20,500 nt of DNA, taken from a virus (lineage: Duplodnaviria; Heunggongvirae; Uroviricota; Caudoviricetes). Both the position numbers and the translations under genes were made by a program. The stretch lies in the IMG/VR virus record IMGVR_UViG_2778261532_000014; one strand, written 5' to 3'. This document shows positions 2,330-20,382 of the stretch, piece after piece. The notes beneath the pieces were generated by a model that saw only the letters and a list, made by a program, of their open reading frames with translations, was not told the origin of the DNA and made no database searches. The stretch's first letter is position 1; each line of letters starts with the position of its first letter.

Positions 2330-3428
2330 AGCTGACCTTGATGTTCCACTGAATTAAAGTACCTGGTACTTTATGAGTTAACTCATTAATTTTATCACCT
2401 TTCTTATTAGAAAGCTTGAACATACCTAAATTACTGTAAATCCAAAGATTTCCATGTTCATTATTTAGTACTAGAGCTTTAATACTCTTACTTCCTTGAC
2501 CATGTTTATCATTGGCTGTACCGGTTACGTCTCCAATCATAGAAATTGCTATTTTTACTGCATCAGAAACAATACCTACTTTTACTTTAGAGCGCTCTTT
2601 ATAACCTAAACCTATTCTCTCAAGTTCTTCGTTAACCGCAACCTTTAGATCTGGATATTTTGATTTGAGCGTACTCATAAACCATGTCTTTTGCATTACA
2701 GTTTCAGGTATACCAACACCTTCATCATATATAGCAAGATAAAGCTGGTCATGAATTACGTGACATGCAAGCCACCATCGTTTCTCATCATTATTTTTAT
2801 GCGGATAGGCGTGTAAACCAACATTATTTATTGCTTCCTGAACAGCATCTGCATATGTATGTTCTGTTTCAGGTTTCATCTTGTTTTTATAAATTTCTTT
2901 CTGGATGAAATCTATAATCTCATCTCTATATTCTCCTCCTACCCCGCTAATAATGGGCAAGTTTTCAACGTTTTCGAAGACAGGTTTTAATTTTTCGCCC
3001 CGACATAAGGCGACAAGACCTGAGTCTCTTAAAAGCTGATTAACTTTAAAATCTGTTGAAAATAATAATCTGTACGATAAACCTTTACGAATTGAAGTTT
3101 CAACACTGGCATAAAGTATTACTAATGCTGCCATTTTTATTGTTTTTGTATTTGTAAAATCTAAATATAATCTCTCATCAGGATTATATTTTATATTCCT
3201 GACGTGATTTATCGAGTGTAGAGAGTGCGCAAAAAAATTAGGCTTATCTGGTGAATATATTGAAAACTCAGATGGAAACCGAATAAAGGTATTATCTTTT
3301 TTCTTTTGAGATTTTTTTTGTTGACGAAACTGCGAATACTCTTTCCCTTGACGGGAAACACTTCGCTGCCATCTTTTAAAAGCCAGCCTAATTCTTACAC
3401 TTTTTTCCTTATTGGCCTTGTTTTCCAT
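2319..3428 (-). CDS. GHKL-superfamily ATPase / anti-sigma-factor-type Ser kinase-like protein with ~180-aa unknown N-terminal domain
   Basis: 369-aa ORF; AGGGGA RBS; Bergerat-fold motifs: N-box EAINNVGLHAY (SpoIIAB/RsbW-like E-x-x-N-x-x-x-H), G1 box DEGVGIP, G2-like GQGSKS; AT-rich. Confidence 0.8.
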   Translation of the reverse strand: MENKANKEKSVRIRLAFKRWQRSVSRQGKEYSQFRQQKKSQKKKDNTFIRFPSEFSIYSPDKPNFFAHSLHSINHVRNIKYNPDERLYLDFTNTKTIKMAALVILYASVETSIRKGLSYRLLFSTDFKVNQLLRDSGLVALCRGEKLKPVFENVENLPIISGVGGEYRDEIIDFIQKEIYKNKMKPETEHTYADAVQEAINNVGLHAYPHKNNDEKRWWLACHVIHDQLYLAIYDEGVGIPETVMQKTWFMSTLKSKYPDLKVAVNEELERIGLGYKERSKVKVGIVSDAVKIAISMIGDVTGTANDKHGQGSKSIKALVLNNEHGNLWIYSNLGMFKLSNKKGDKINELTHKVPGTLIQWNIKVSYED

Positions 3429-4206
3429 GTGTCCCCTATCAATATGCTGTTCTTTTCATACTACGAATGATAGTACAATTAAACCAAGATTGGTATACAG
3501 ACCACCCGTCGTCCAGCACAAAAATTTTGTTGGTGGTGAGGTTGAAAAACGCAGTTAAATCATATAGATATGGTTTCTTGAGTATAAAAATACCGTTCTT
3601 AGCCATGCTCAAGAACGGCTTGGTTTTGTTGTTGATAAAAATACTAAAGCTTTAACGAGTCTTAAATCAATATTGAAATAACAAAATCAAATTAATTAAC
3701 AAGAGGTTTATCATTGAAAAAATATAACCCAAGAAAAATCATTAATTTTGAGTTCCAATTAATACAAAATACAACTTAATAATGCTCATGAATATATTAA
3801 ATCATTAATGCAGATAGTATTATTACCGAATAGGAACACAGCAACTTAGCTTATTCTGCCCTATTTATACCACTGCTCCTGACCTTGTGTGGTAGCAGGA
3901 GCATCAGACCAGTCACGATTCTTGGGTTGCTGACTTGGGGCACGATCATTACTTGATACATTCTACTTTTCTTCCTTGAGAACCTTAATATTTCCATATG
4001 TCGCTACTTTACACTCCTGCTTTCAGGCCTACATTCATACGGGGTTCAGCGTGCTTTAAACTATACTTCGCTTACCATTAAAATATTGTATTTCTTAGTA
4101 TCAGCCGATGACTTTACCCTTTTGGGGCTCGGGACATTTTCTCTTGTATATTTCAGGAAAATATTAAATAACCATTTATCCATATAGTGATGTCAACTAA
4201 TAGCTA

Positions 4207-4401: not shown

Positions 4402-5180
4402 TACTTCACCTCCTGCGGCGGCTCCGGTAGCGGTATCCAGTGGGTTACTTTCGATGCCGGTTCTTCCCCATCGTCAGTAACTGCCCACCATTTGTTTCTC
4501 GACCAATCGTAATACCCTTCGAAGGTATCGCACTCAGTCCAGCCGTAAGACTTCCCCCAACACCAAACATACTGTTTATCATTCGGCATTCGCTCACTAC
4601 AGCTTATCCAACCACCCGGACTTACCGGAGAGTTGCCAGACAGCGCGTTCTGCAGCCGTTCCAGCTTAACGTATTCCTGAACCCTGTTTCCGTCGCACAC
4701 CTGAAGCCATTGCGCAGCCTTTTGCGCATCAGTGTGAAAGGCACAAGTGCGACCGTCATCAAATTGCATTTCGTAGAGGTCAGCAACTTGTTCAAACTGC
4801 GTGTGTGGTGACTTGTAAGTTTGGTTTACAGGTTCGGCACCATGAAGCATGGCGGCGCGGCAGGCGTTCCAGCCTTCATCAAAACCGACTATGCCATTAT
4901 TTAAAGACGGACGAGCATCTGGCACTACCGGCACTGGCTTGGCTATATATAGCGGCTGAACATACCAGCTCTTTGATAACCAACTGTCAGCAATGTTTTT
5001 ACTCCTCGTTATTGCCGGAATACCTAAGCCATTTTCTGAATGCAGCCATGCCACCGGCTCCTCTTCTAGCGATGCCAGAGCAATTTCATAAGCACGGCGC
5101 TCAATATCGTCTCGAACCTCTAGGCTGCTGATTCGTTCTTTGATTTCTTTAATCAGTTCTTTGTCGGTAAACGTGATCAT
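4401..5180 (-). CDS. DUF551 domain phage protein (yfdT-like position)
   Basis: 259-aa ORF; GGAGG RBS; C-terminal W-rich DUF551-like segment (WISCSERMPNDKQ...THWIPLPEPP); stop overlaps next start. Confidence 0.75.
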   Translation of the reverse strand: MITFTDKELIKEIKERISSLEVRDDIERRAYEIALASLEEEPVAWLHSENGLGIPAITRSKNIADSWLSKSWYVQPLYIAKPVPVVPDARPSLNNGIVGFDEGWNACRAAMLHGAEPVNQTYKSPHTQFEQVADLYEMQFDDGRTCAFHTDAQKAAQWLQVCDGNRVQEYVKLERLQNALSGNSPVSPGGWISCSERMPNDKQYVWCWGKSYGWTECDTFEGYYDWSRNKWWAVTDDGEEPASKVTHWIPLPEPPQEVK

Positions 5181-13576: not shown

Positions 13577-14572
13577 GTGACCGTGAGAGCACTACTGACC
13601 CCTGAAATTGCCCCGCGTATGGGGATCGTATTGTTCAGGCCAGGTTCAGAGTTGATGCCCCTGTTTATGCAGGGGCGTGTCCTGCTGGAGCCTGAGCCGG
13701 AACGTTATTCATCTTTCGCCAGTGGTGCCGTTCCGGCGGCATCACAACCGCTGGCGGATGATCCTGCCGTTCGGGCCGTGTTCCGCAATGAGGCAGTGAT
13801 CCGTCGTGCTGGTGGCGTGGAATGTCTTGAAAGCTGGTTACTTCGTGAAAAAGGCTGCCAGTGGCCTCATTCCGACTGGCACAGCGAGAACATGACCACA
13901 ATGCGACACGCTCCGGGCGCAATCCGTCTGTGCTGGCACTGCGATAACCAGCTGCGCGATCAGTTCACGGAACGGCTGGAATCAATGGCAACGGATAACT
14001 GTGCCCGCTGGGTGTTGTCTGTTGTGCGTCGGGATCTCGGTTTTGATGACAGTCACGTTGTGACAATGCCGGAACTGTGCTGGTGGCTGATTCGTAATGA
14101 TCTGGCGGATGCCTTACCGGAAAGTGCAGCCCGTAAGGCACTGAGATTACCGAAGCCTGTTGTGCCGTCTGTCACCCGGGAAAGTGACCTTGTGCCTTCG
14201 GTTCCTGCCACCAGCATCATCCAGGATAAAGCGAAAAAGGTGCTGGCGCTGAAAGTGGATCCGGAGTCGCCGGAGTCTTTTATGTTACGCCCAAAACGTC
14301 GCCGCTGGGTTAATGAAAAGTACACGCGCTGGGTTAAGACACAGCCGTGTGCATGTTGTGGAAAGCCCGCTGATGATCCCCACCACCTGATAGGCCACGG
14401 TCAGTGTGGAATGGGTACAAAAGCGCATGACCTTTTTGTGTTGCCTTTGTGCAGAAAGCATCACGACGAGCTGCATGCGGATACCGTGGCATTTGAAGAG
14501 AGGTATGGCTCCCAGCTGGAGCTGATATTTCGTTTTATCGATCGTGCGCTGGCAATTGGCGTGCTGGCCTGA
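13577..14572 (+). CDS. DUF968 domain protein (HNH/zinc-finger-like C-terminus)
   Basis: 331-aa ORF; C-terminal CACCGKP...HHLIGHG...CRKHHDELH motif typical of DUF968; start codon uncertain (GTG 13577 or downstream). Confidence 0.75.
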   Translation: MTVRALLTPEIAPRMGIVLFRPGSELMPLFMQGRVLLEPEPERYSSFASGAVPAASQPLADDPAVRAVFRNEAVIRRAGGVECLESWLLREKGCQWPHSDWHSENMTTMRHAPGAIRLCWHCDNQLRDQFTERLESMATDNCARWVLSVVRRDLGFDDSHVVTMPELCWWLIRNDLADALPESAARKALRLPKPVVPSVTRESDLVPSVPATSIIQDKAKKVLALKVDPESPESFMLRPKRRRWVNEKYTRWVKTQPCACCGKPADDPHHLIGHGQCGMGTKAHDLFVLPLCRKHHDELHADTVAFEERYGSQLELIFRFIDRALAIGVLA

Positions 14573-14589
14573 TTTTGTGGAGAAAGTTG

Positions 14590-14952
14590 ATGCGTGATAT
14601 TCAAATGGTTCTGGATCGTTGGGGAGCATGGGCGGCGAGTGATAGTTCAGGAGTAGACTATTCTCCTATAGCTGCTGGGTTTAAAGGGCTTCTTCCCTAT
14701 ACAAGCAAAACACGTCAGGCTTGTTCAGATAGTGATGCATTAATTATTGAAGGTTGTCTTGCTCTTCTTAAAAAGCGAAAACCGTACGAGCATTCTTTGA
14801 TTGTGGCCCATTACCTGTATGGCATCTCGAAAAGAAAGCTTGCAAGAGCTCGCAAAAAAGATGAGAAATTGATACGTATAGAGATACAGATGGCTGAAGG
14901 GTTTATTGATGGATGCCTTTCAATGCTGGATGTTAAACTTGAAATGGAGTAG
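14590..14952 (+). CDS. Late-gene antitermination protein Q (QuuD/Q82-like family)
   Basis: 120 aa from ATG 14590 with GGAG RBS; MRDIQMVLDRWGAWAA N-terminus and overall pattern match DLP12 QuuD-type Q proteins as recalled. Confidence 0.85.
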   Translation: MRDIQMVLDRWGAWAASDSSGVDYSPIAAGFKGLLPYTSKTRQACSDSDALIIEGCLALLKKRKPYEHSLIVAHYLYGISKRKLARARKKDEKLIRIEIQMAEGFIDGCLSMLDVKLEME

Positions 14953-14980
14953 AAAAAAGGGCATTTCTGCCCTTTTTAAA
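14953..14980. terminator. Bidirectional Rho-independent terminator between Q and the convergent cassette
   Basis: Hairpin gggca-tttc-tgccc flanked by A6 upstream and T5 downstream; serves the stop of Q (14952) and the stop of the minus-strand gene (14976). Confidence 0.7.
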
Positions 14981-15419
14981 TGTGGGGGAGTATCCAGTTT
15001 ACTTTTCTCCATGTAAAGGCAAAAGTTATTACTGAAATGATAAGAAGAGATAAAGATTCGATAATTAAAATAAATTCTATTTTTTCTCCATGTAACAATG
15101 TCTTTTCATTGGCAAACATTGCTATCAAAGCAATAACGCATGCCGTAATTAAAGATGCACCTGCGGTTAATAGATTTACAATAATAACTTGAAGTATGTT
15201 GTTGTTTTTTAATGCTTTTATTATTCCATTTGAGTTTTCGCTAGCAGCACTAAAAATTGATTTTGTGGCTAAAATAAAACCAAATAAAATACCGGATACA
15301 GTTGAAATAACCCCGGAGGCTGTAAGTATGTCAGCATGCCCCATCTGAGGGATATACCTCAGTAGGAACAAGGTGCAAAAAACACTTACAATCAGGTTTC
15401 TTAAGTATTTCAATAACAT
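14976..15419 (-). CDS. Four-TM small membrane protein (RexB-like candidate effector)
   Basis: 147-aa ORF with four predicted hydrophobic helices; 3-nt gap to upstream gene; very AT-rich. Confidence 0.7.
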   Translation of the reverse strand: MLLKYLRNLIVSVFCTLFLLRYIPQMGHADILTASGVISTVSGILFGFILATKSIFSAASENSNGIIKALKNNNILQVIIVNLLTAGASLITACVIALIAMFANEKTLLHGEKIEFILIIESLSLLIISVITFAFTWRKVNWILPHI

Positions 15420-15422
15420 ATC

Positions 15423-16364
15423 CTATACCTTCTTTTTGCTGATATCGTATTGCTTAAGGTATTCATTGTTATCAATTTTAGCAGAAATCATGGCTTGCAG
15501 AACATCACTATCAGTGCCATAACCATTAACGGTATATATGTTTTTTTCTGAAATGAGTACCTGATCAAGAAGACTTTGTTCAACGGTATTTTTGGGCTGT
15601 GTTACTGCCGCTTTTTTTACAATTCCCGGCATTTTTTCAAGGAGTTCTTTAATACCATCCTTAACGAGATCTGATAAATAACCTTTGACTTTTACTCTCC
15701 CTGATGCACGTCCCCTTAGATTTAACTTGAGACGTGTTCCACCCAGCCCTACCATCATATTTACCAGTTCCTTAGAAAATGAACTATTTAGCTGGTAATT
15801 TGTTGCATCAAAGTTCCTGGGAGCAGCCAGGACAATATCACAACTTCTCAAAGTACTTCCTGTTTCAAGTAGCTCTTTGACGCTCTCTTTTTTCCAGATG
15901 GCTTGGAATGAAAAGTTATTTCCAGGATTACCACTCTGGCTGTAAAGCAGATAAGCTAAATCCGATTCTTTCGGCCCAAGATGATTTTGAGTTAATATTA
16001 AAATATCACTATCGTAATAATATAAAAAATAGGTTCTTTCGACTATGTATTTTTTATCATCTAGTGGTATGTTGTGCTCATTCCAGTGTTCATCACCAAT
16101 ATAAGGAAGGAGATACTCTTCTCGTGAGCATGACATGTAGCCGAAGAAATATTTAGCTTTTGTATCTTTATTTATAAAAGCTATTTTTAACTTTTTATTT
16201 CTATAGATGGTATCAAAATGATTATTCGTAACGGTTACGCAAGTATTATACAGATTTTCAATTGCTTGCTTAGCAACTGAATGGCTGCGGATAGTCCCAG
16301 AACTGCTGGTGTAAAAACCAATTTTAAGTTTTTTTTGTTTCTTTGATTGCGCAATAGTAGCCAT
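15423..16364 (-). CDS. Hypothetical 313-aa cytoplasmic protein (candidate sensor partner of the 4-TM protein)
   Basis: AAGG RBS 7 nt upstream of ATG at 16364; Lys/Asn/Tyr-rich AT-rich composition; no motif I can assign. Confidence 0.7.
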   Translation of the reverse strand: MATIAQSKKQKKLKIGFYTSSSGTIRSHSVAKQAIENLYNTCVTVTNNHFDTIYRNKKLKIAFINKDTKAKYFFGYMSCSREEYLLPYIGDEHWNEHNIPLDDKKYIVERTYFLYYYDSDILILTQNHLGPKESDLAYLLYSQSGNPGNNFSFQAIWKKESVKELLETGSTLRSCDIVLAAPRNFDATNYQLNSSFSKELVNMMVGLGGTRLKLNLRGRASGRVKVKGYLSDLVKDGIKELLEKMPGIVKKAAVTQPKNTVEQSLLDQVLISEKNIYTVNGYGTDSDVLQAMISAKIDNNEYLKQYDISKKKV

Positions 16365-16497
16365 GTTAAACCTTAGTATACTAATAATTTCTTATGGATC
16401 TTATTTTTTATATGGCTTTAATTTAGCAAAAAAAAATTACCGCGGTCCGCAAATTTTATCTTAATCTGTTAAGAGTGGTTACTTCGCCACACAGCTT

Positions 16498-16521
16498 AAA
16501 CCCGCCGTCGAGCGGTTTTTT
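16498..16521 (+). terminator. Possible plus-strand terminator-like hairpin
   Basis: acccgc-cgtcga-gcggtt stem-loop followed by TTTTTT; no annotated plus-strand gene ends here, so the terminated transcript is unknown. Confidence 0.35.
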
Positions 16522-16619
16522 GTACCTGTAAACCTGGTGCAGTACAGTAAACACGCTGGTGGTCGTGAATACTGACTTTTTATCTTGCTGGCTTTTTAGA
16601 CAAGAGTTATTGGTATGTC

Positions 16620-16847
16620 ATGTTAACCAGAAGGGAAAAAGACATGCTAAAACAGCAAGATATGACAGAAACCGCCGCCGCAGTCCTTCATTTCTTACCT
16701 GCTGACAAGTGGGTAACGCCACGCATGATGACGAGAACTACCGGAGTAAGCGAAGCCCAGTGCCAGTTAATACTGACTCAGTTAGTTCTGGCGGGTCTGG
16801 CGAAGGATAACGGCGGGTACGGGAATAAATTCAGACGCTGCCAGTAA
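16620..16847 (+). CDS. Hypothetical small protein upstream of methyltransferase
   Basis: 75-aa ORF; start ambiguous (ATG 16620 or 16644); weak RBS. Confidence 0.45.
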   Translation: MLTRREKDMLKQQDMTETAAAVLHFLPADKWVTPRMMTRTTGVSEAQCQLILTQLVLAGLAKDNGGYGNKFRRCQ

Positions 16848-16997
16848 TGGCGGTTTCCTGCTGTGAAAATGGGCGGCTGGTGGGTGTTGGTAGCACCTGC
16901 CAGCCATTCGCTCATGCTTACTGGTCACAAGCGAACCACGGCCCACTGCTTTAGCGCAAAAGCAGAGTGAGCCTACCAGAGTTACGCTTACTGATCC

Positions 16998-18056
16998 ATG
17001 AAAAATACTGTAAAAATAAACAGTGTTGATTTGATCAACGCTGATTGCCTGCATTTTATTCAGTCCCTGCCTGATGATTCCATTGACCTGATTGTTACCG
17101 ATCCGCCGTACTTCAAGGTGAAACCCAACGGCTGGGACAATCAGTGGAAAGGGGACGAAGGTTACCTTAAGTGGCTGGACCACTGTCTGGCCCAGTTCTG
17201 GCGGGTGTTGAAACCTGCCGGAAGCCTTTACCTGTTCTGTGGACATCGCCTGGCATCTGATATTGAGATCATGATGCGTGAACGTTTCAACGTGCTTAAC
17301 CATATCATCTGGGCGAAGCCGTCCGGACGTTGGAACGGGTGCAACAAGGAAAGCCTGCGGGCGTATTTTCCGGCAACAGAGCGCATTCTGTTTGCCGGAC
17401 ATTATCAGGGGCCATATCAGCTAAAAAATGATGGCTATGCGGCAAAGGGCAGGGCTCTGAAACAGCATGTGATGGCCCCGCTGATTTCTTACTTTTGTGA
17501 TGCGCGTGCGGCCCTGGGGATTACGGCAAAACAGATTGTGGATGCTACAGGAAAGAAAAACATGGTGTCGCACTGGTTCAGTGCCAGTCAGTGGCAGCTA
17601 CCGAATGAAAGCGATTATCTGAAATTACAGGCACTGTTTGCCCGAGTGGCAGAAGAGAAGCACCAGTGCGGAGAACTGGAAAAGCCACATTACCAACTGG
17701 TCAGCACATACAGTGAACTGAACCGGCAGTATACGGAACTGCTGAGTGAATATAAAAATTTGCGGCGGTATTTCGGTGTGACTGTGCAGGTGCCGTACAC
17801 CGATGTGTGGACGCATAAACCGGTGCAGTACTATCCCGGGAAGCACCCGTGCGAAAAACCGGCAGAAATGTTGCAGCAGATAATCAGCGCAAGCAGCCGT
17901 CCGGGAGACCTGGTTGCAGATTTCTTCATGGGGTCAGGTTCGACAGTCAAAGCAGCGATGGCGCAGGGACGTCGTGTGATTGGTGTTGAGCTGGAGACTG
18001 AGCGTTTTGAGCAGACGGTCAGGGAAGTACAGGATTTAGTCAGTCAGAACGGATGA
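16998..18056 (+). CDS. Orphan N6-adenine DNA methyltransferase (beta-class, DPPY motif)
   Basis: 352-aa ORF; motif IV TDPPYF near N-terminus and motif I FFMGSGST near C-terminus; no adjacent restriction endonuclease gene. Confidence 0.9.
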   Translation: MKNTVKINSVDLINADCLHFIQSLPDDSIDLIVTDPPYFKVKPNGWDNQWKGDEGYLKWLDHCLAQFWRVLKPAGSLYLFCGHRLASDIEIMMRERFNVLNHIIWAKPSGRWNGCNKESLRAYFPATERILFAGHYQGPYQLKNDGYAAKGRALKQHVMAPLISYFCDARAALGITAKQIVDATGKKNMVSHWFSASQWQLPNESDYLKLQALFARVAEEKHQCGELEKPHYQLVSTYSELNRQYTELLSEYKNLRRYFGVTVQVPYTDVWTHKPVQYYPGKHPCEKPAEMLQQIISASSRPGDLVADFFMGSGSTVKAAMAQGRRVIGVELETERFEQTVREVQDLVSQNG

Positions 18057-18096
18057 ACTTGCAGAATTAGTTACGTACCGTTATTATCCTGCGCCC

Positions 18097-18172
18097 GGCC
18101 CTTTAGCTCAGTGGTTAGAGCGAGCGACTCATAATCGCCAGGTCGCTGGTTCAAATCCAGCAAGGGCCACCA
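18097..18172 (+). tRNA. tRNA-Ile2 (anticodon CAU; ileX/ileZ-like; Met not excluded)
   Basis: 76 nt; perfect 7-bp acceptor stem, D-arm GCTC/GAGC, anticodon loop CTCATAA, T-arm GCTGG-TTCAAAT-CCAGC, encoded CCA; close to E. coli ileX as recalled. Confidence 0.85.
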
Positions 18173-18174
18173 TT

Positions 18175-18251
18175 CCGCCACCAGCTCATCTGGATAGAGC
18201 ATCAGCCTTCTAAGTTGATTGTGCGAGGTTCGAGCACCCGGTGGCGGACCA
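18175..18251 (+). tRNA. tRNA-Arg (anticodon UCU, AGA-decoding) with imperfect T-stem
   Basis: 77 nt; perfect acceptor stem CCGCCAC/GTGGCGG, canonical D-arm, anticodon loop CTTCTAA, encoded CCA; T-stem has two mismatches including position 53-61. Confidence 0.6.
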
Positions 18252-18790
18252 TTCCATGCAAGTTTAGCTGGCAGCGCTATTAGCTCGGCGTAATTGGGAT
18301 ATTCGTCAGGCTCTGTTAGTTCACCATATTGCGTCATAGATTTTCTATCAACGATACAATTAACGTTAAATGTTGCAAAAACTCCTGCTGATGTAAGTCT
18401 TGCGATCTGTTATTCCCGGAGTGTTTCCTGTTATTTATTGCGACAACTGAATCAGTGTGTTCCCAAATCGTTTATATTTGTGTTAGTTTTTACGCAATCT
18501 CCTGTGCGAAATCAGAATTCTGGATGGAATAACATAAACTGTATGTAATTGATACAGATTTATACATATTTTTAAATCTGAAAACTAATTAGTTTTTGAT
18601 GTCATATGAATTATCGGTAATATTACTCCCGACCCGGAAGACAGCAAGTTTATGTTCACAGCGGTGTTCCCCGCTGTCTTGCGGTTCATTGTAGGCTTCC
18701 GTTCAATCATATTGAAGGTCTGTTATCAGTATCATTATTGTGGTTACGGAGGCCTGCTCTTTATTCAGGTATCGTATAGTAGCTATTACC

Positions 18791-18836
18791 GCAGCCTTCT
18801 GGGTTGGCGATGCAGGTTCGATTCCTGTTCTCCACA
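18791..18836 (+). other. tRNA-like 3' fragment (anticodon-arm-like plus T-arm with B-box)
   Basis: GCAGG-TTCGATT-CCTGT T-arm (B-box GGTTCGATTCC at 18815-18825) preceded by a loop CTTCTGG with UCU; no matching 5' acceptor strand or D-arm found. Confidence 0.35.
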
Positions 18837-18992
18837 ACTTCATTGTTTTATTTCTGACGGACTTTTACAGCACTGGCGGTTTTCCGAGTTGAATAATAGT
18901 TCAGGTTTTTTATTGTTCTCCATTCTGCAATAGCGGATACAGTGCTGTTCTTTTTTTTGTTCATGAAGTTGCGTTATTGGAAAAAAGTCGTT

Positions 18993-19068
18993 GCCAGAAT
19001 GAGTCGTTGCCTGTTTTGGTGCCTGCGATTTGCCAGAATTGCGTTGCAATCTGACGACTCATTCTGGC
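18993..19068. repeat. 15-bp perfect inverted repeat with 46-nt spacer
   Basis: gccagaatgagtcgt (18993-19007) and acgactcattctggc (19054-19068); the spacer contains a third gccagaat copy. Confidence 0.5.
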
Positions 19069-19122
19069 GGCGACCATACTTAAAATAAACGCTGTTCCAC
19101 TCTTACATGTTGAATGTGTTAG

Positions 19123-19147
19123 CCCGTCTCCGGACGGGTATTTTTTT
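19123..19147 (+). terminator. Rho-independent terminator
   Basis: cccgtc-tccg-gacggg hairpin followed by TA + T7. Confidence 0.65.
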
Positions 19148-19320
19148 GCCTGTAGCCAGGCCCGCTACTGCGAGCTTTTTTCATATCCGCGCCACGTCCG
19201 GTGCACATCAAAAACCACAGAGCCTTTCAGGGGGGGGGAGCTTACGGGATGGTCGGTGTGACTTTCTCTGTGGGCTGCTCATCCCGGGGCGAGGCTCTCC
19301 CACTAAAAGGAAACGTCACG

Positions 19321-19746
19321 ATGTTTGGTATTTTCAAAAAGAAAACCTGCAAGGCGATTGTTGAGGTGAAGAAGATGGAAAATCGCGATGCGGTGGAAGC
19401 GACCGTCTGGGGCGCATATTCCATTGCATATGCTGACGGTACCTGCGACGCGAAAGAAATCGCAGTGCTGGAGAAAACCATTGCAGCACTTCCGGCCTTT
19501 GCGCTGTTCTCAGGTGAGATTGCCCAGATGAGCGCCAATATCCGCGCCCGTTATGAAGCATCCCCGCGTTCTGCCAATGCTGAAGCCCTCCGTCAGCTGG
19601 CTGACGTGGCAGGGACAACAGAGGCGGTTGACGTACTGTGCCTCTGTCTGGATATCGCTGACCAGGATAGCATTAGTCCGGATGAAGAAGCGCAGCTCAA
19701 GAAAATTGCACAGGCGCTTCAGTTACCACTGGAGCAGTATCTGTGA
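19321..19746 (+). CDS. TerB-like (tellurite-resistance TerB family) protein
   Basis: 141 aa from ATG 19321 with AAGGA RBS; paired-helix pattern with conserved acidic positions resembles the TerB fold; the longer ORF from 19201 lacks an RBS. Confidence 0.7.
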   Translation: MFGIFKKKTCKAIVEVKKMENRDAVEATVWGAYSIAYADGTCDAKEIAVLEKTIAALPAFALFSGEIAQMSANIRARYEASPRSANAEALRQLADVAGTTEAVDVLCLCLDIADQDSISPDEEAQLKKIAQALQLPLEQYL

Positions 19747-19992
19747 AAAGTGCACGTCTTGTGCTGGCTGCCATCCTGCTGTTTCTGGTAGTGGCAGTAG
19801 ATTTTGCCGGACGGCTGATGTCGGTTCTGGCTGATGGCGTGCTGGTAGCGATGGTGATGGTTGTTCTCTGGCCTTTACTGCGCAAATCTGAATAACACCA
19901 CACAAAAGGCATCTGTGGGTGCAGGTGTCTTTGACGGGGTGTTTTTTGGTGGGCCGCTGGTGGCTCTTTTTTATTTACAGGAGAAAAAAGGT

Positions 19993-20382
19993 ATGTCTGA
20001 ACCCTTGTCCGGTTCCGGTACGGCCGCGGCGCTCGGCGGGGCGACGGTATTCGGGCTGTTCACCGGAACGGATTTCGGGATTGTGTTTGGTGCCTTTGCC
20101 GGTGCGCTGTTTGTGGCAACAATGCCGCAGACGCTTTCAGCCTGGCGTGTGGCTGCACATTTCCTGGTGTCCTTTATTGTTGGTGTTCTTGGGGCCCGTG
20201 GTGTGGCGGGGTATATGGCGGAGCGTATTGGGTTTGACAGCGCTTCCGTTGATGCGTTGTGTGCAGTACTGGTGTCGGTGGTTTCAGTAAAGGTCCTGTC
20301 ATTCATCCATCAGCAGGATATTACATCGCTGGTATCCGGTCTGTTCTCCCGTCAACGGGGAGGTGGTGGTAATGGCAAATAA
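19993..20382 (+). CDS. Gly/Ala-rich multi-TM membrane protein (possible holin-like protein)
   Basis: 129 aa from ATG 19993 with AGGAG RBS; glycine-zipper-like hydrophobic segments; the ORF-track start at 19861 lacks an RBS. Confidence 0.55.
   Translation: MSEPLSGSGTAAALGGATVFGLFTGTDFGIVFGAFAGALFVATMPQTLSAWRVAAHFLVSFIVGVLGARGVAGYMAERIGFDSASVDALCAVLVSVVSVKVLSFIHQQDITSLVSGLFSRQRGGGGNGK

Follow-up and report, generated by a model that had tools for sequence, protein, structure and literature searches.

A degenerate tRNA-Gly(UCC) cassette with conserved RNA structures in the non-coding tract between the tRNA genes and tciA of a phiP27-like prophage

We studied a stretch of 20,500 nt from a tailed virus (IMG/VR record IMGVR_UViG_2778261532_000014; hereafter the window), which is a phiP27-like and Stx2c-like lambdoid prophage of porcine Escherichia coli, and within it the tract 18252-19320, which is located in the late region, 3' of a methylase gene and the tRNA genes ileZ and argN, and which is followed by the gene tciA. 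A tRNA-Gly(UCC) cassette known to recur in prophages is present at ~18530-19150 in degenerate form, both tRNAs found in the tract are decayed, no open reading frame (ORF) is conserved, and the helices of a long hairpin, of a leader and of a trailer are conserved on the + strand with compensatory changes. Our best explanation, to which we give a probability of roughly 60% as a whole, the inferred mechanism included, is that the tract is non-coding mosaic DNA, an extension of the phage tRNA array up to the leader of the next gene; its likely role is to end and process transcripts and to insulate the lysis genes from the tRNA region. The puzzling 1-kb gap in the phiP27-like late region of this pig-associated prophage is real and now largely explained, and what is new in it is confined to conserved RNA structures outside all curated families, namely the recurrent tRNA-Gly cassette with its flanking structures, which are absent from Rfam, and a conserved folded leader of tciA.

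The tract is structured and carries no conserved gene

The first-pass annotation, which had been made from the letters of the window, regarded the tract as an apparently non-coding and structured region, and both parts of this description are borne out. No ORF of the tract is conserved or matches a protein family, and the RefSeq annotation is blank here in eight near-identical genomes. The six ORFs tested (38-93 amino acids (aa), including ones of 84, 93 and 85 aa) gave zero matches in Pfam and PHROG. An intact, conserved protein-coding gene in homologous phages, which would have spoken against this description, was not seen, and the two longest ORFs are disrupted in the 85%-identical homologue of strain RM11911 (locus L003): the ORF at 18294-18548 has its start codon changed to TAG and a 1-nt indel, and the ORF at 18652-18933, which spans the tRNA-like piece, has its ATG changed to CTG, a 6-nt insertion and a 2-nt deletion. 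A stretch of 899 nt folds with z = -6.3 relative to shuffled sequence. An Rfam structure search of the tract returned only tRNAs at E<=1, besides sub-threshold matches to PhrS (21 bits, with a threshold of 37 bits) and to Plastid-ycf2 (antisense to a tRNA), both of which were judged to be chance or artefact. Features that had escaped the first-pass annotation are a second dead tRNA (argO), the T-run at 18948-18958, the terminator at 19158-19183 and the tciA leader at 19184-19320; the coordinates of all features are collected in Table 1.

A decayed copy of a recurrent tRNA-Gly(UCC) cassette

Intact cassettes are present directly 3' of the methylase gene or of a tRNA-Thr gene in strains C5, RM11911, R1 and F2_407_2_2 and in several IMG/VR contigs. 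Their order is a conserved, AT-rich upstream region with the promoter-like sequence TTGATG-N16/17-TAGTAT, a leader of ~190 nt, tRNA-Gly(UCC), a trailer with the closing stem CAGCACTG/CAGTGCTG and a T-run, a long hairpin, a linker of ~45 nt and a strong terminator, and the hairpin module lies 125-150 nt 3' of the tRNA. ARAGORN calls tRNA-Gly(UCC) in eleven of the loci compared (L008, L009, L012, L013, L016-L019, L024, L034 and L037). The upstream region, leader helices, trailer stem with its T-run, hairpin and terminator of the window are homologous to those of the cassettes in C5, RM11911, R1 and the IMG/VR contigs, and they stand in the same order and on the same strand; the difference is that the tRNA has been inactivated in the lineage of the window.

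A tRNA-like fragment had already been noticed in the tract, and Rfam places it at 18771-18829 (tRNA, 23.1 bits, E=0.085, below the gathering score of 29 bits). It belongs to a dead tRNA-Gly gene in which the D, anticodon and T arms are recognisable, but only three of the seven acceptor pairs are left, the anticodon reads UCU and not UCC, and ~28% of the sequence has diverged. ARAGORN called nothing in 18252-19320, and the gene lacks the features of a functional tRNA. The same pseudogene is present in the first cassette unit of RM11911 and in locus L030, where five of the seven acceptor pairs are kept and 2 nt of the anticodon loop are deleted; lesions that differ between copies are what would be expected of a pseudogene. 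Because its UCU anticodon arm resembles that of tRNA-Arg, the dead tRNA-Gly first looked like a fragment of an Arg tRNA; the arm (18792-18806) is identical in 13 of 15 positions to that of the neighbouring tRNA-Arg (18203-18217). As a separate observation, the phage tRNA-Gly(UCC) genes (L008 2404-2481, L009 2277-2354) do not encode CCA in register (...CCCGC-T-CTCCA), and their maturation would need trimming and CCA addition, unlike that of E. coli chromosomal tRNA genes.

On both sides of the dead tRNA, the spacers keep their pairing. The leader forms helix A (18631-18645 with 18673-18687) and helix B (18691-18701 with 18747-18757), and in the RNAalifold structure of 10 copies 7 of the 20 pairs are changed on both sides; helix B of the window carries an extra insertion of ~40 nt compared with intact cassettes. 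In the trailer, which was aligned in 11 copies, the closing stem (18869-18877 with 18940-18948) and two small internal helices are kept, with three pairs changed on both sides, and the closing stem is followed by the T-run at 18948-18958, and the two form a terminator-like site (terminator 1).

Several observations on the cassettes may be added. Strain RM11911 (L003 4001-5720) has two of them in tandem: in unit 1 the tRNA-Gly is dead, and the place that the hairpin takes in the window is filled by another inverted repeat of 18 bp (GACACAGAAATGGCGCAT, 42-nt spacer) and an STnc100-like sequence; in unit 2 the tRNA-Gly is intact, and the inverted repeat is a third one, unrelated to the others, so that the architecture recurs although the sequences differ. 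The leader of an intact cassette (L008 2340-2365) shares ~24 nt (CCACCG(G)AAAG.CAGTGCTGGCT) with the 3' half of PasA (strain E2348/69, L102 4916-5000, minus strand), a resemblance that may be a recombination relic or chance. A LexA box, considered for CTGT...ACAG at 18541-18559, was rejected on its spacing, which is 11 nt and not 8.

The long hairpin and the terminators

The first-pass annotation had further described a perfect inverted repeat with a third copy of its core and a strong intrinsic terminator, and all three were found. The arms of the repeat (18987-19007 and 19054-19074) are 21 nt long and 90% complementary, their inner 15 nt (18993-19007/19054-19068) are perfectly so, 46 nt lie between them, and the third core copy is TTGCCAGAAT at 19030-19039. 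Folded as RNA, the repeat gives an outer stem of 21 bp, two of them G.U, compared with 17 bp in intact cassettes, and the apical hairpin bears the third TTGCCAGAAT. Terminator 2 consists of a stem-loop at 19122-19139 (a 7-bp stem with five G-C pairs and a 4-nt loop) and T7.

We built a covariance model (R1) from nine hairpin-terminator modules, and a search with it gave 31 full-length copies (19 distinct), each of which has the orientation of the tRNA and late genes beside it. From the alignments, statistics were computed for each segment. In the 19 distinct copies, 92.5% of the cells of the hairpin-terminator module are paired, compared with 31-44% when the partners are slid by 1-3 columns, and all cells of terminator 2 are paired. 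Eight pairs (32 cells) are changed on both sides, which was reached by none of 500 shuffles (0/500). Moreover, mismatches in the hairpin are strongly asymmetric (G.U in 90 cells, A.C in 16), pairing amounts to 90.9% of cells for the + strand and to 79.3% for the - strand, and the minimum free energy of the module in the window is -72.1 kcal/mol on the + strand (z = -6.4), compared with -58.2 on the - strand. The bias of G.U over A.C and the folding energies point to an RNA of the + strand rather than to a DNA palindrome.

Terminator 3 (19158-19177 followed by T6) has three pairs changed on both sides. Intrinsic terminators, that is, G+C-rich stem-loops with a T-run, are predicted at 19122-19139 and 19158-19177; 18940-18948 with its T-run closes a long-range stem. 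The linker between hairpin and terminator 2 has no second copy within the window, and its complementarity to transcripts of the window is not above that of shuffled controls.

The hairpin module is rare. It is present in only 26 of 5426 complete genomes, with E2348/69 not among them, and none was found by blastn, at the sensitivity of that program, in 50,697 deposited phage records. Searching with the pattern AGAATGNGTCG...CGNCNCATTCT was productive among viral contigs; its 63 matches among genome contigs fell in unrelated phyla and were discarded as chance. A decayed trailer and hairpin copy with a broken stem is carried by plasmid pGPT24-02-A (L007 1780-2785), which comes from the same isolate as the chromosome that matches the tract at 100%, and this copy adjoins a truncated IS200 (a match to STnc490) and an STnc100-like element.

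An insertion in the tRNA module of Stx phages

The 63 nt at 18274-18336 align end-to-end, with many substitutions, to argO of phiP27 and of the PPompW phage, and their anticodon arm is short by 14 nt; this dead argO is called neither by ARAGORN nor by Rfam. By this alignment the array of the window reads ileZ, argN and dead argO, as in the Shiga toxin (Stx) phages. In phiP27, Evi and PPompW, terminator 3 comes within 11-14 nt after argO, so the ~820 bp at 18337-19155 have been inserted between argO and this array-ending terminator; they consist of an AT-rich spacer and the degenerate tRNA-Gly cassette. Between pR' and argN, the window shares 83-91% identity with phiP27 and with phages of the Stx2c and Stx2a types, and the ileZ-argN-argO module of these phages has the same order of methylase, ileZ, argN/argO, terminator, cargo and holins. 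The window differs from it in that argO is dead, ~820 bp have been inserted before its terminator and the cargo is tciAB, not stx.

The spacer (18337-18529) is present in only 16 of 5426 complete E. coli genomes, and in two of these 16 it is interrupted by an insertion sequence (IS), either IS1A or an element of the IS21 family. IS insertions are thus tolerated in the spacer, as they are in the tciA leader; those seen in homologous tracts are IS1A (L108 2688-3385) and ISSso4 of the IS21 family (L109 94-2401). An origin of the spacer as a remnant of the methylase 3' end was considered and dropped, as the alignment was not convincing.

It had been suggested that toxin genes occupy the equivalent position in Stx phages, and that the tract may be a scar of the loss or exchange of such cargo. 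In phiP27, stxA2e and stxB2e come after ileZ, a decayed argN and argO. Of the tciA leader, this phage keeps the first ~45 nt and the Shine-Dalgarno (SD) region; terminator 3 and the final ~75 nt of tciB are kept too, and the segments 3381-3470 and 4960-5035 of its sequence (L005) flank stxA2e, stxB2e and L27. Because both ends of the leader and the end of tciB were retained, we conclude that stx2e together with L27 replaced ~19196-19810, a segment that takes in the central part of the tciA leader, the whole of tciA and the 5' part of tciB. This fixes the site of the toxin swap, which lies right after the array-ending terminator. The replacement was made almost exactly at the start codon.

Alignment to related prophages showed that the slot holds stx2e in phiP27, a RelE/helix-turn-helix (HTH) pair in PPyecE_EH1910 and tRNAs in JLK-2012; because other phages carry a RelE/HTH pair or other tRNAs here, the place is a genuine hot spot of exchange. 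The suggestion therefore holds as far as cargo exchange is concerned, but the toxin slot at ~19196-19810 adjoins the tract and does not coincide with it. A scar of toxin loss is not supported: no stx remnant is detectable, near and distant searches of the tract gave no similarity to stxA or stxB, and the junctions in phiP27 fall outside 18337-19155. The interpretation that the first-pass annotation placed on the tract is thus partly supported.

The folded leader of tciA

The 5' leader of tciA is widely conserved (78-89%): it is shared by phages of E. coli and Klebsiella, and by a single record that was deposited under the name of an Actinobacillus phage. In the fold predicted by RNAalifold, CCUUUCA (19223-19229) pairs with the SD region UAAAAGG (19304-19310), and 19214-19222 pair with the start-codon region (19319-19329). 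Of all cells in this fold, 96% are paired, compared with 36-46% after sliding, and eight pairs are changed on both sides. The covariation is found mainly in the terminator and in inner helix 6; the SD helix is paired in 98% of cells, yet almost invariant, and an alternative stem, CCACAGAG/CTCTGTGG, is invariant as well. In this predicted fold, the leader would probably hold the ribosome-binding site in a helix. In PPompW phages, an IS110-family element, ISEc20, is inserted in this leader directly after its G-run (L004 3072-4530).

Table 1. Positions of the features discussed, numbered from the first letter of the window
Feature	Position	Strand	Basis
Putative pR'/tR'	~16450-16522		terminator-like site and AT-rich promoter-like stretch
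tRNA-Ile2 (CAU, ileZ)	18097-18172	+	ARAGORN; Rfam tRNA; RefSeq annotation in EC416
tRNA-Arg (UCU, argN)	18175-18251	+	ARAGORN; Rfam tRNA; RefSeq annotation in EC416
Dead argO tRNA	18274-18336	+	alignment to argO of phiP27 and PPompW
AT-rich spacer	18337-18529		GC ~0.32-0.37
Cassette upstream region	18530-18629	+	homologous to conserved upstream region of intact cassettes
Promoter-like site	TTGATG 18596-18601, 16-nt spacer, TAATAT 18618-18623	+	function inferred
Structured leader (5' spacer)	18630-18764	+	inverted repeat; RNAalifold
Dead tRNA-Gly	18765-18836	+	aligned with intact tRNA-Gly(UCC) genes; Rfam sub-threshold
3' trailer	18837-18960	+	alignment; conserved in 11 copies
Long RNA hairpin	18987-19074	+	inverted repeat; covariance model R1; folding
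Linker	19075-19121	+	alignments; mostly single-stranded, partly conserved
Terminator 2	19122-19147	+	terminator scan
Terminator 3	19158-19183	+	alignments to phiP27, Evi and PPompW
tciA 5' leader	19184-19320	+	conserved alignments; RNAalifold
tciA (TerB family)	19321-19746	+	Pfam and PHROG matches
tciB (DUF3927)	19743-19895	+	Pfam and PHROG matches

Proposed role and points against it

By analogy with lambda, the tract would sit inside the Q-dependent late operon. In the lysogen, the tRNA region and the cassette promoter would be active, and three successive terminators (near 18958, 19147 and 19183) would stop transcription, insulating tciAB and the lysis genes. After induction, Q-modified polymerase would read through these terminators, and the hairpin of 21 bp or more would probably then serve as a processing or stabilising site for a double-strand-specific nuclease of the RNase III type. 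Processing at the hairpin would separate the tRNA-bearing RNA from the downstream mRNA. The 21-bp outer stem with its inner pairs has the length known for RNase III substrates (~20 bp or more of near-perfect double-stranded RNA), which makes it a candidate substrate. If the hairpin and the terminators do control read-through, they bear on how late genes are kept silent during tRNA expression in lambdoid and Stx-type prophages; if they do not, the tract would be ordinary decaying mosaic DNA.

A number of points weigh against this explanation. The promoter-like site of the cassette matches the consensus in 8 of 12 positions and is absent from the list of the promoter scan, the 'loop' of terminator 1 is 62 nt long, so that this terminator may be inefficient, and the spacer 18337-18529 is left unexplained. 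In the window copy, two pairs of the inner hairpin extension are broken. The 19 copies come from related E. coli prophages, and their covariation counts are inflated by shared ancestry; moreover, recombination break points lie inside the hairpin module, and the counts overstate the number of independent events. Every functional step of the mechanism is a prediction. Finally, the 3' ends of tRNAs in E. coli are normally made by RNase E and exonucleases, and an RNase III site is not required.

Alternative explanations

The main rival is a stand-alone small RNA (sRNA) of the Hfq type, a possibility that the first-pass annotation had raised as a small RNA ending at the terminator. It would be ~170-180 nt long, start at ~18965-18985 and end at 19147, with 19075-19121 as a seed acting in trans on mRNAs. 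The architecture would suit such an RNA, with a 5' hairpin, a single-stranded stretch containing A and U, and a G+C-rich terminator with U7; the + strand conservation in 19 distinct copies and the survival of the hairpin module beside a dead tRNA also speak for it, and the prophage sRNAs PasA-D, STnc100 and EcOnc are known from the region between Q and the holins, near TerB and DUF3927 genes (PMC8550237; bioRxiv 10.64898/2026.05.13.724894). However, the copies vary in the stretch that separates the T-run from the hairpin, and no -35 or -10 element is conserved there, the best -10 candidate in the window being TGCCAG, and it is the lack of a conserved promoter in this variable stretch that weakens the stand-alone sRNA. 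No Rfam family matches at E<=1, the putative seed shows the control-level complementarity described above for the linker, and Hfq-dependent sRNAs do not usually have a perfect stem longer than 20 bp. We therefore consider this explanation unlikely and favour a cis-acting part of the late or tRNA-cassette transcript over an sRNA gene that stands alone.

A broader possibility is that the cassette is a multi-part phage RNA locus, whose leader, trailer and hairpin-terminator would act as regulatory RNAs, as processed sRNAs, as sponges or as an RNase III-controlled switch between lysogenic and late transcripts. We hold this to be rather unlikely. If it were true, the locus would be a new tRNA-linked family of prophage RNAs, absent from Rfam and kept in the window after its tRNA had died.

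The alternatives that follow are less likely. The whole tract, the hairpin included, could be functionless debris, whose conservation would reflect recent ancestry and recombination among a few prophages. In keeping with this, both tRNAs are dead, IS elements lie in homologous tracts, only 8 of 5426 complete genomes have the tract as it is in the window, two inner hairpin pairs are broken here and the decayed plasmid copy (L007) has a broken stem. Yet a divergence of ~25% between lineages, which destroyed the acceptor stem of the tRNA, left ~91-100% of the hairpin pairing in place through double and wobble changes, an asymmetry of G.U over A.C is unexpected in drifting DNA palindromes, and the leader helices covary too. 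Neutral debris is thus an improbable account of the tract.

The repeat could also be an element that works as DNA, its three CAGAAT-containing cores marking a site of protein binding or of recombination, or the termini of a miniature transposable element. The GCCAGAAT core, present twice in direct and once in inverted orientation, fits this idea, CAGAAT is kept at all three places in other lineages, and the related plasmid copy adjoins a truncated IS200. But the context of the repeat is constant, between the tRNA-Gly trailer and terminator 2, no sign of independent mobility or target duplications was seen, and all 31 copies are in the cassette context (the five sites in strain C5 were not viewed individually). 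Moreover, mismatches on one strand are mostly G.U, a strong bias that suits RNA but not duplex DNA, and the truncated IS200 joins the trailer, not the repeat. An element of this kind is very improbable. Least credible is a scar of stx loss or a cryptic small-protein gene, for although phiP27, the nearest deposited phage, has stx2e between tRNAs and holins, and ORFs of 84, 93 and 85 aa are present, near and distant searches gave no stxA or stxB similarity, the phiP27 junctions put stx2e over the tciA leader, tciA and 5' tciB, and the ORFs have no family matches and are disrupted in homologues.

Comparison with known RNAs

The PasD/STnc100, PasA/PasC and EcOnc RNAs share the neighbourhood of TerB/tciA, DUF3927 and holin genes with the tract, and they too are structured RNAs that end at terminators. 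In E2348/69, PasD2 is located 3' of tciB and PasA 5' of the holin gene. With the E2348/69 loci and Rfam as references, no homologue of PasD/STnc100 or PasA was found in the window, and the hairpin module was rejected as one; likewise, STnc100, AgvB, AsxR, Esr41 and IsrK have no Rfam match at E<=1 in 17900-20000 or 14400-17100. STnc100-like sequences are present at the corresponding place in unit 1 of RM11911 and in plasmid pGPT24-02-A.

Two other systems resemble the cassette in architecture. The 3'ETS-leuZ of E. coli, which Lalaouna et al. are said to have described in 2015, is reportedly an external transcribed spacer of a tRNA that acts as an RNA itself. Like the hairpin region, it is a structured RNA that comes after the 3' end of a tRNA and before an intrinsic terminator, in one transcript with the tRNA, but there is no sequence similarity and the tRNA partner in the window is dead. 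RNase III hairpins are known in polycistronic phage transcripts, such as the sib retroregulator of lambda and the R sites of T7. These share with the tract a long, near-perfect RNA stem beside a terminator in an antiterminated phage operon; there is no homology, and the hairpin of the window, a candidate cleavage site only, comes after tRNAs and not after int or between early genes.

Genomic context and further observations

The tract is 100% identical to a part of the E. coli chromosome NZ_OZ282453 and 99-99.9% identical to seven more complete genomes, and all tract-carrying genomes with a stated host among these eight near-identical ones come from pigs. The RefSeq annotation of EC416 gives the order antiterminator Q, two minus-strand genes, a small ORF, a DNA methyltransferase, tRNA-Ile and tRNA-Arg, after which follow 1069 bp without features, a TerB-family gene, a DUF3927 gene, two holins and an endolysin. 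The genes ileZ and argN are intact (Rfam tRNA scores of 72.7 and 32.3 bits). Further upstream, a terminator-like site at 16504-16522 stands 3' of an AT-rich promoter-like stretch, which fits a pR'/tR' pair.

Between Q and this putative pR'/tR' there is a minus-strand gene pair (14976-16364), AT-rich (GC ~0.3), which encodes a DUF6731-family protein and a hypothetical protein; it looks like a moron or a defence insertion, and PADLOC gave no match for it. ARAGORN calls a 92-nt 'tRNA-Arg(tct)' at 19752-19843, within the coding sequence of tciB, and makes the same call in L038 and L028; it is probably a false positive, as Rfam shows no tRNA there. The leader of the holin gene (19896-19993) has two terminator-like hairpins, at 19909-19922 and at 19951-19966 with a T-run. 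No Rfam family matches this leader, which is kept in phiP27, RM11911 and other prophages, and at its position the prophages of enteropathogenic E. coli (EPEC) carry PasA and PasC.

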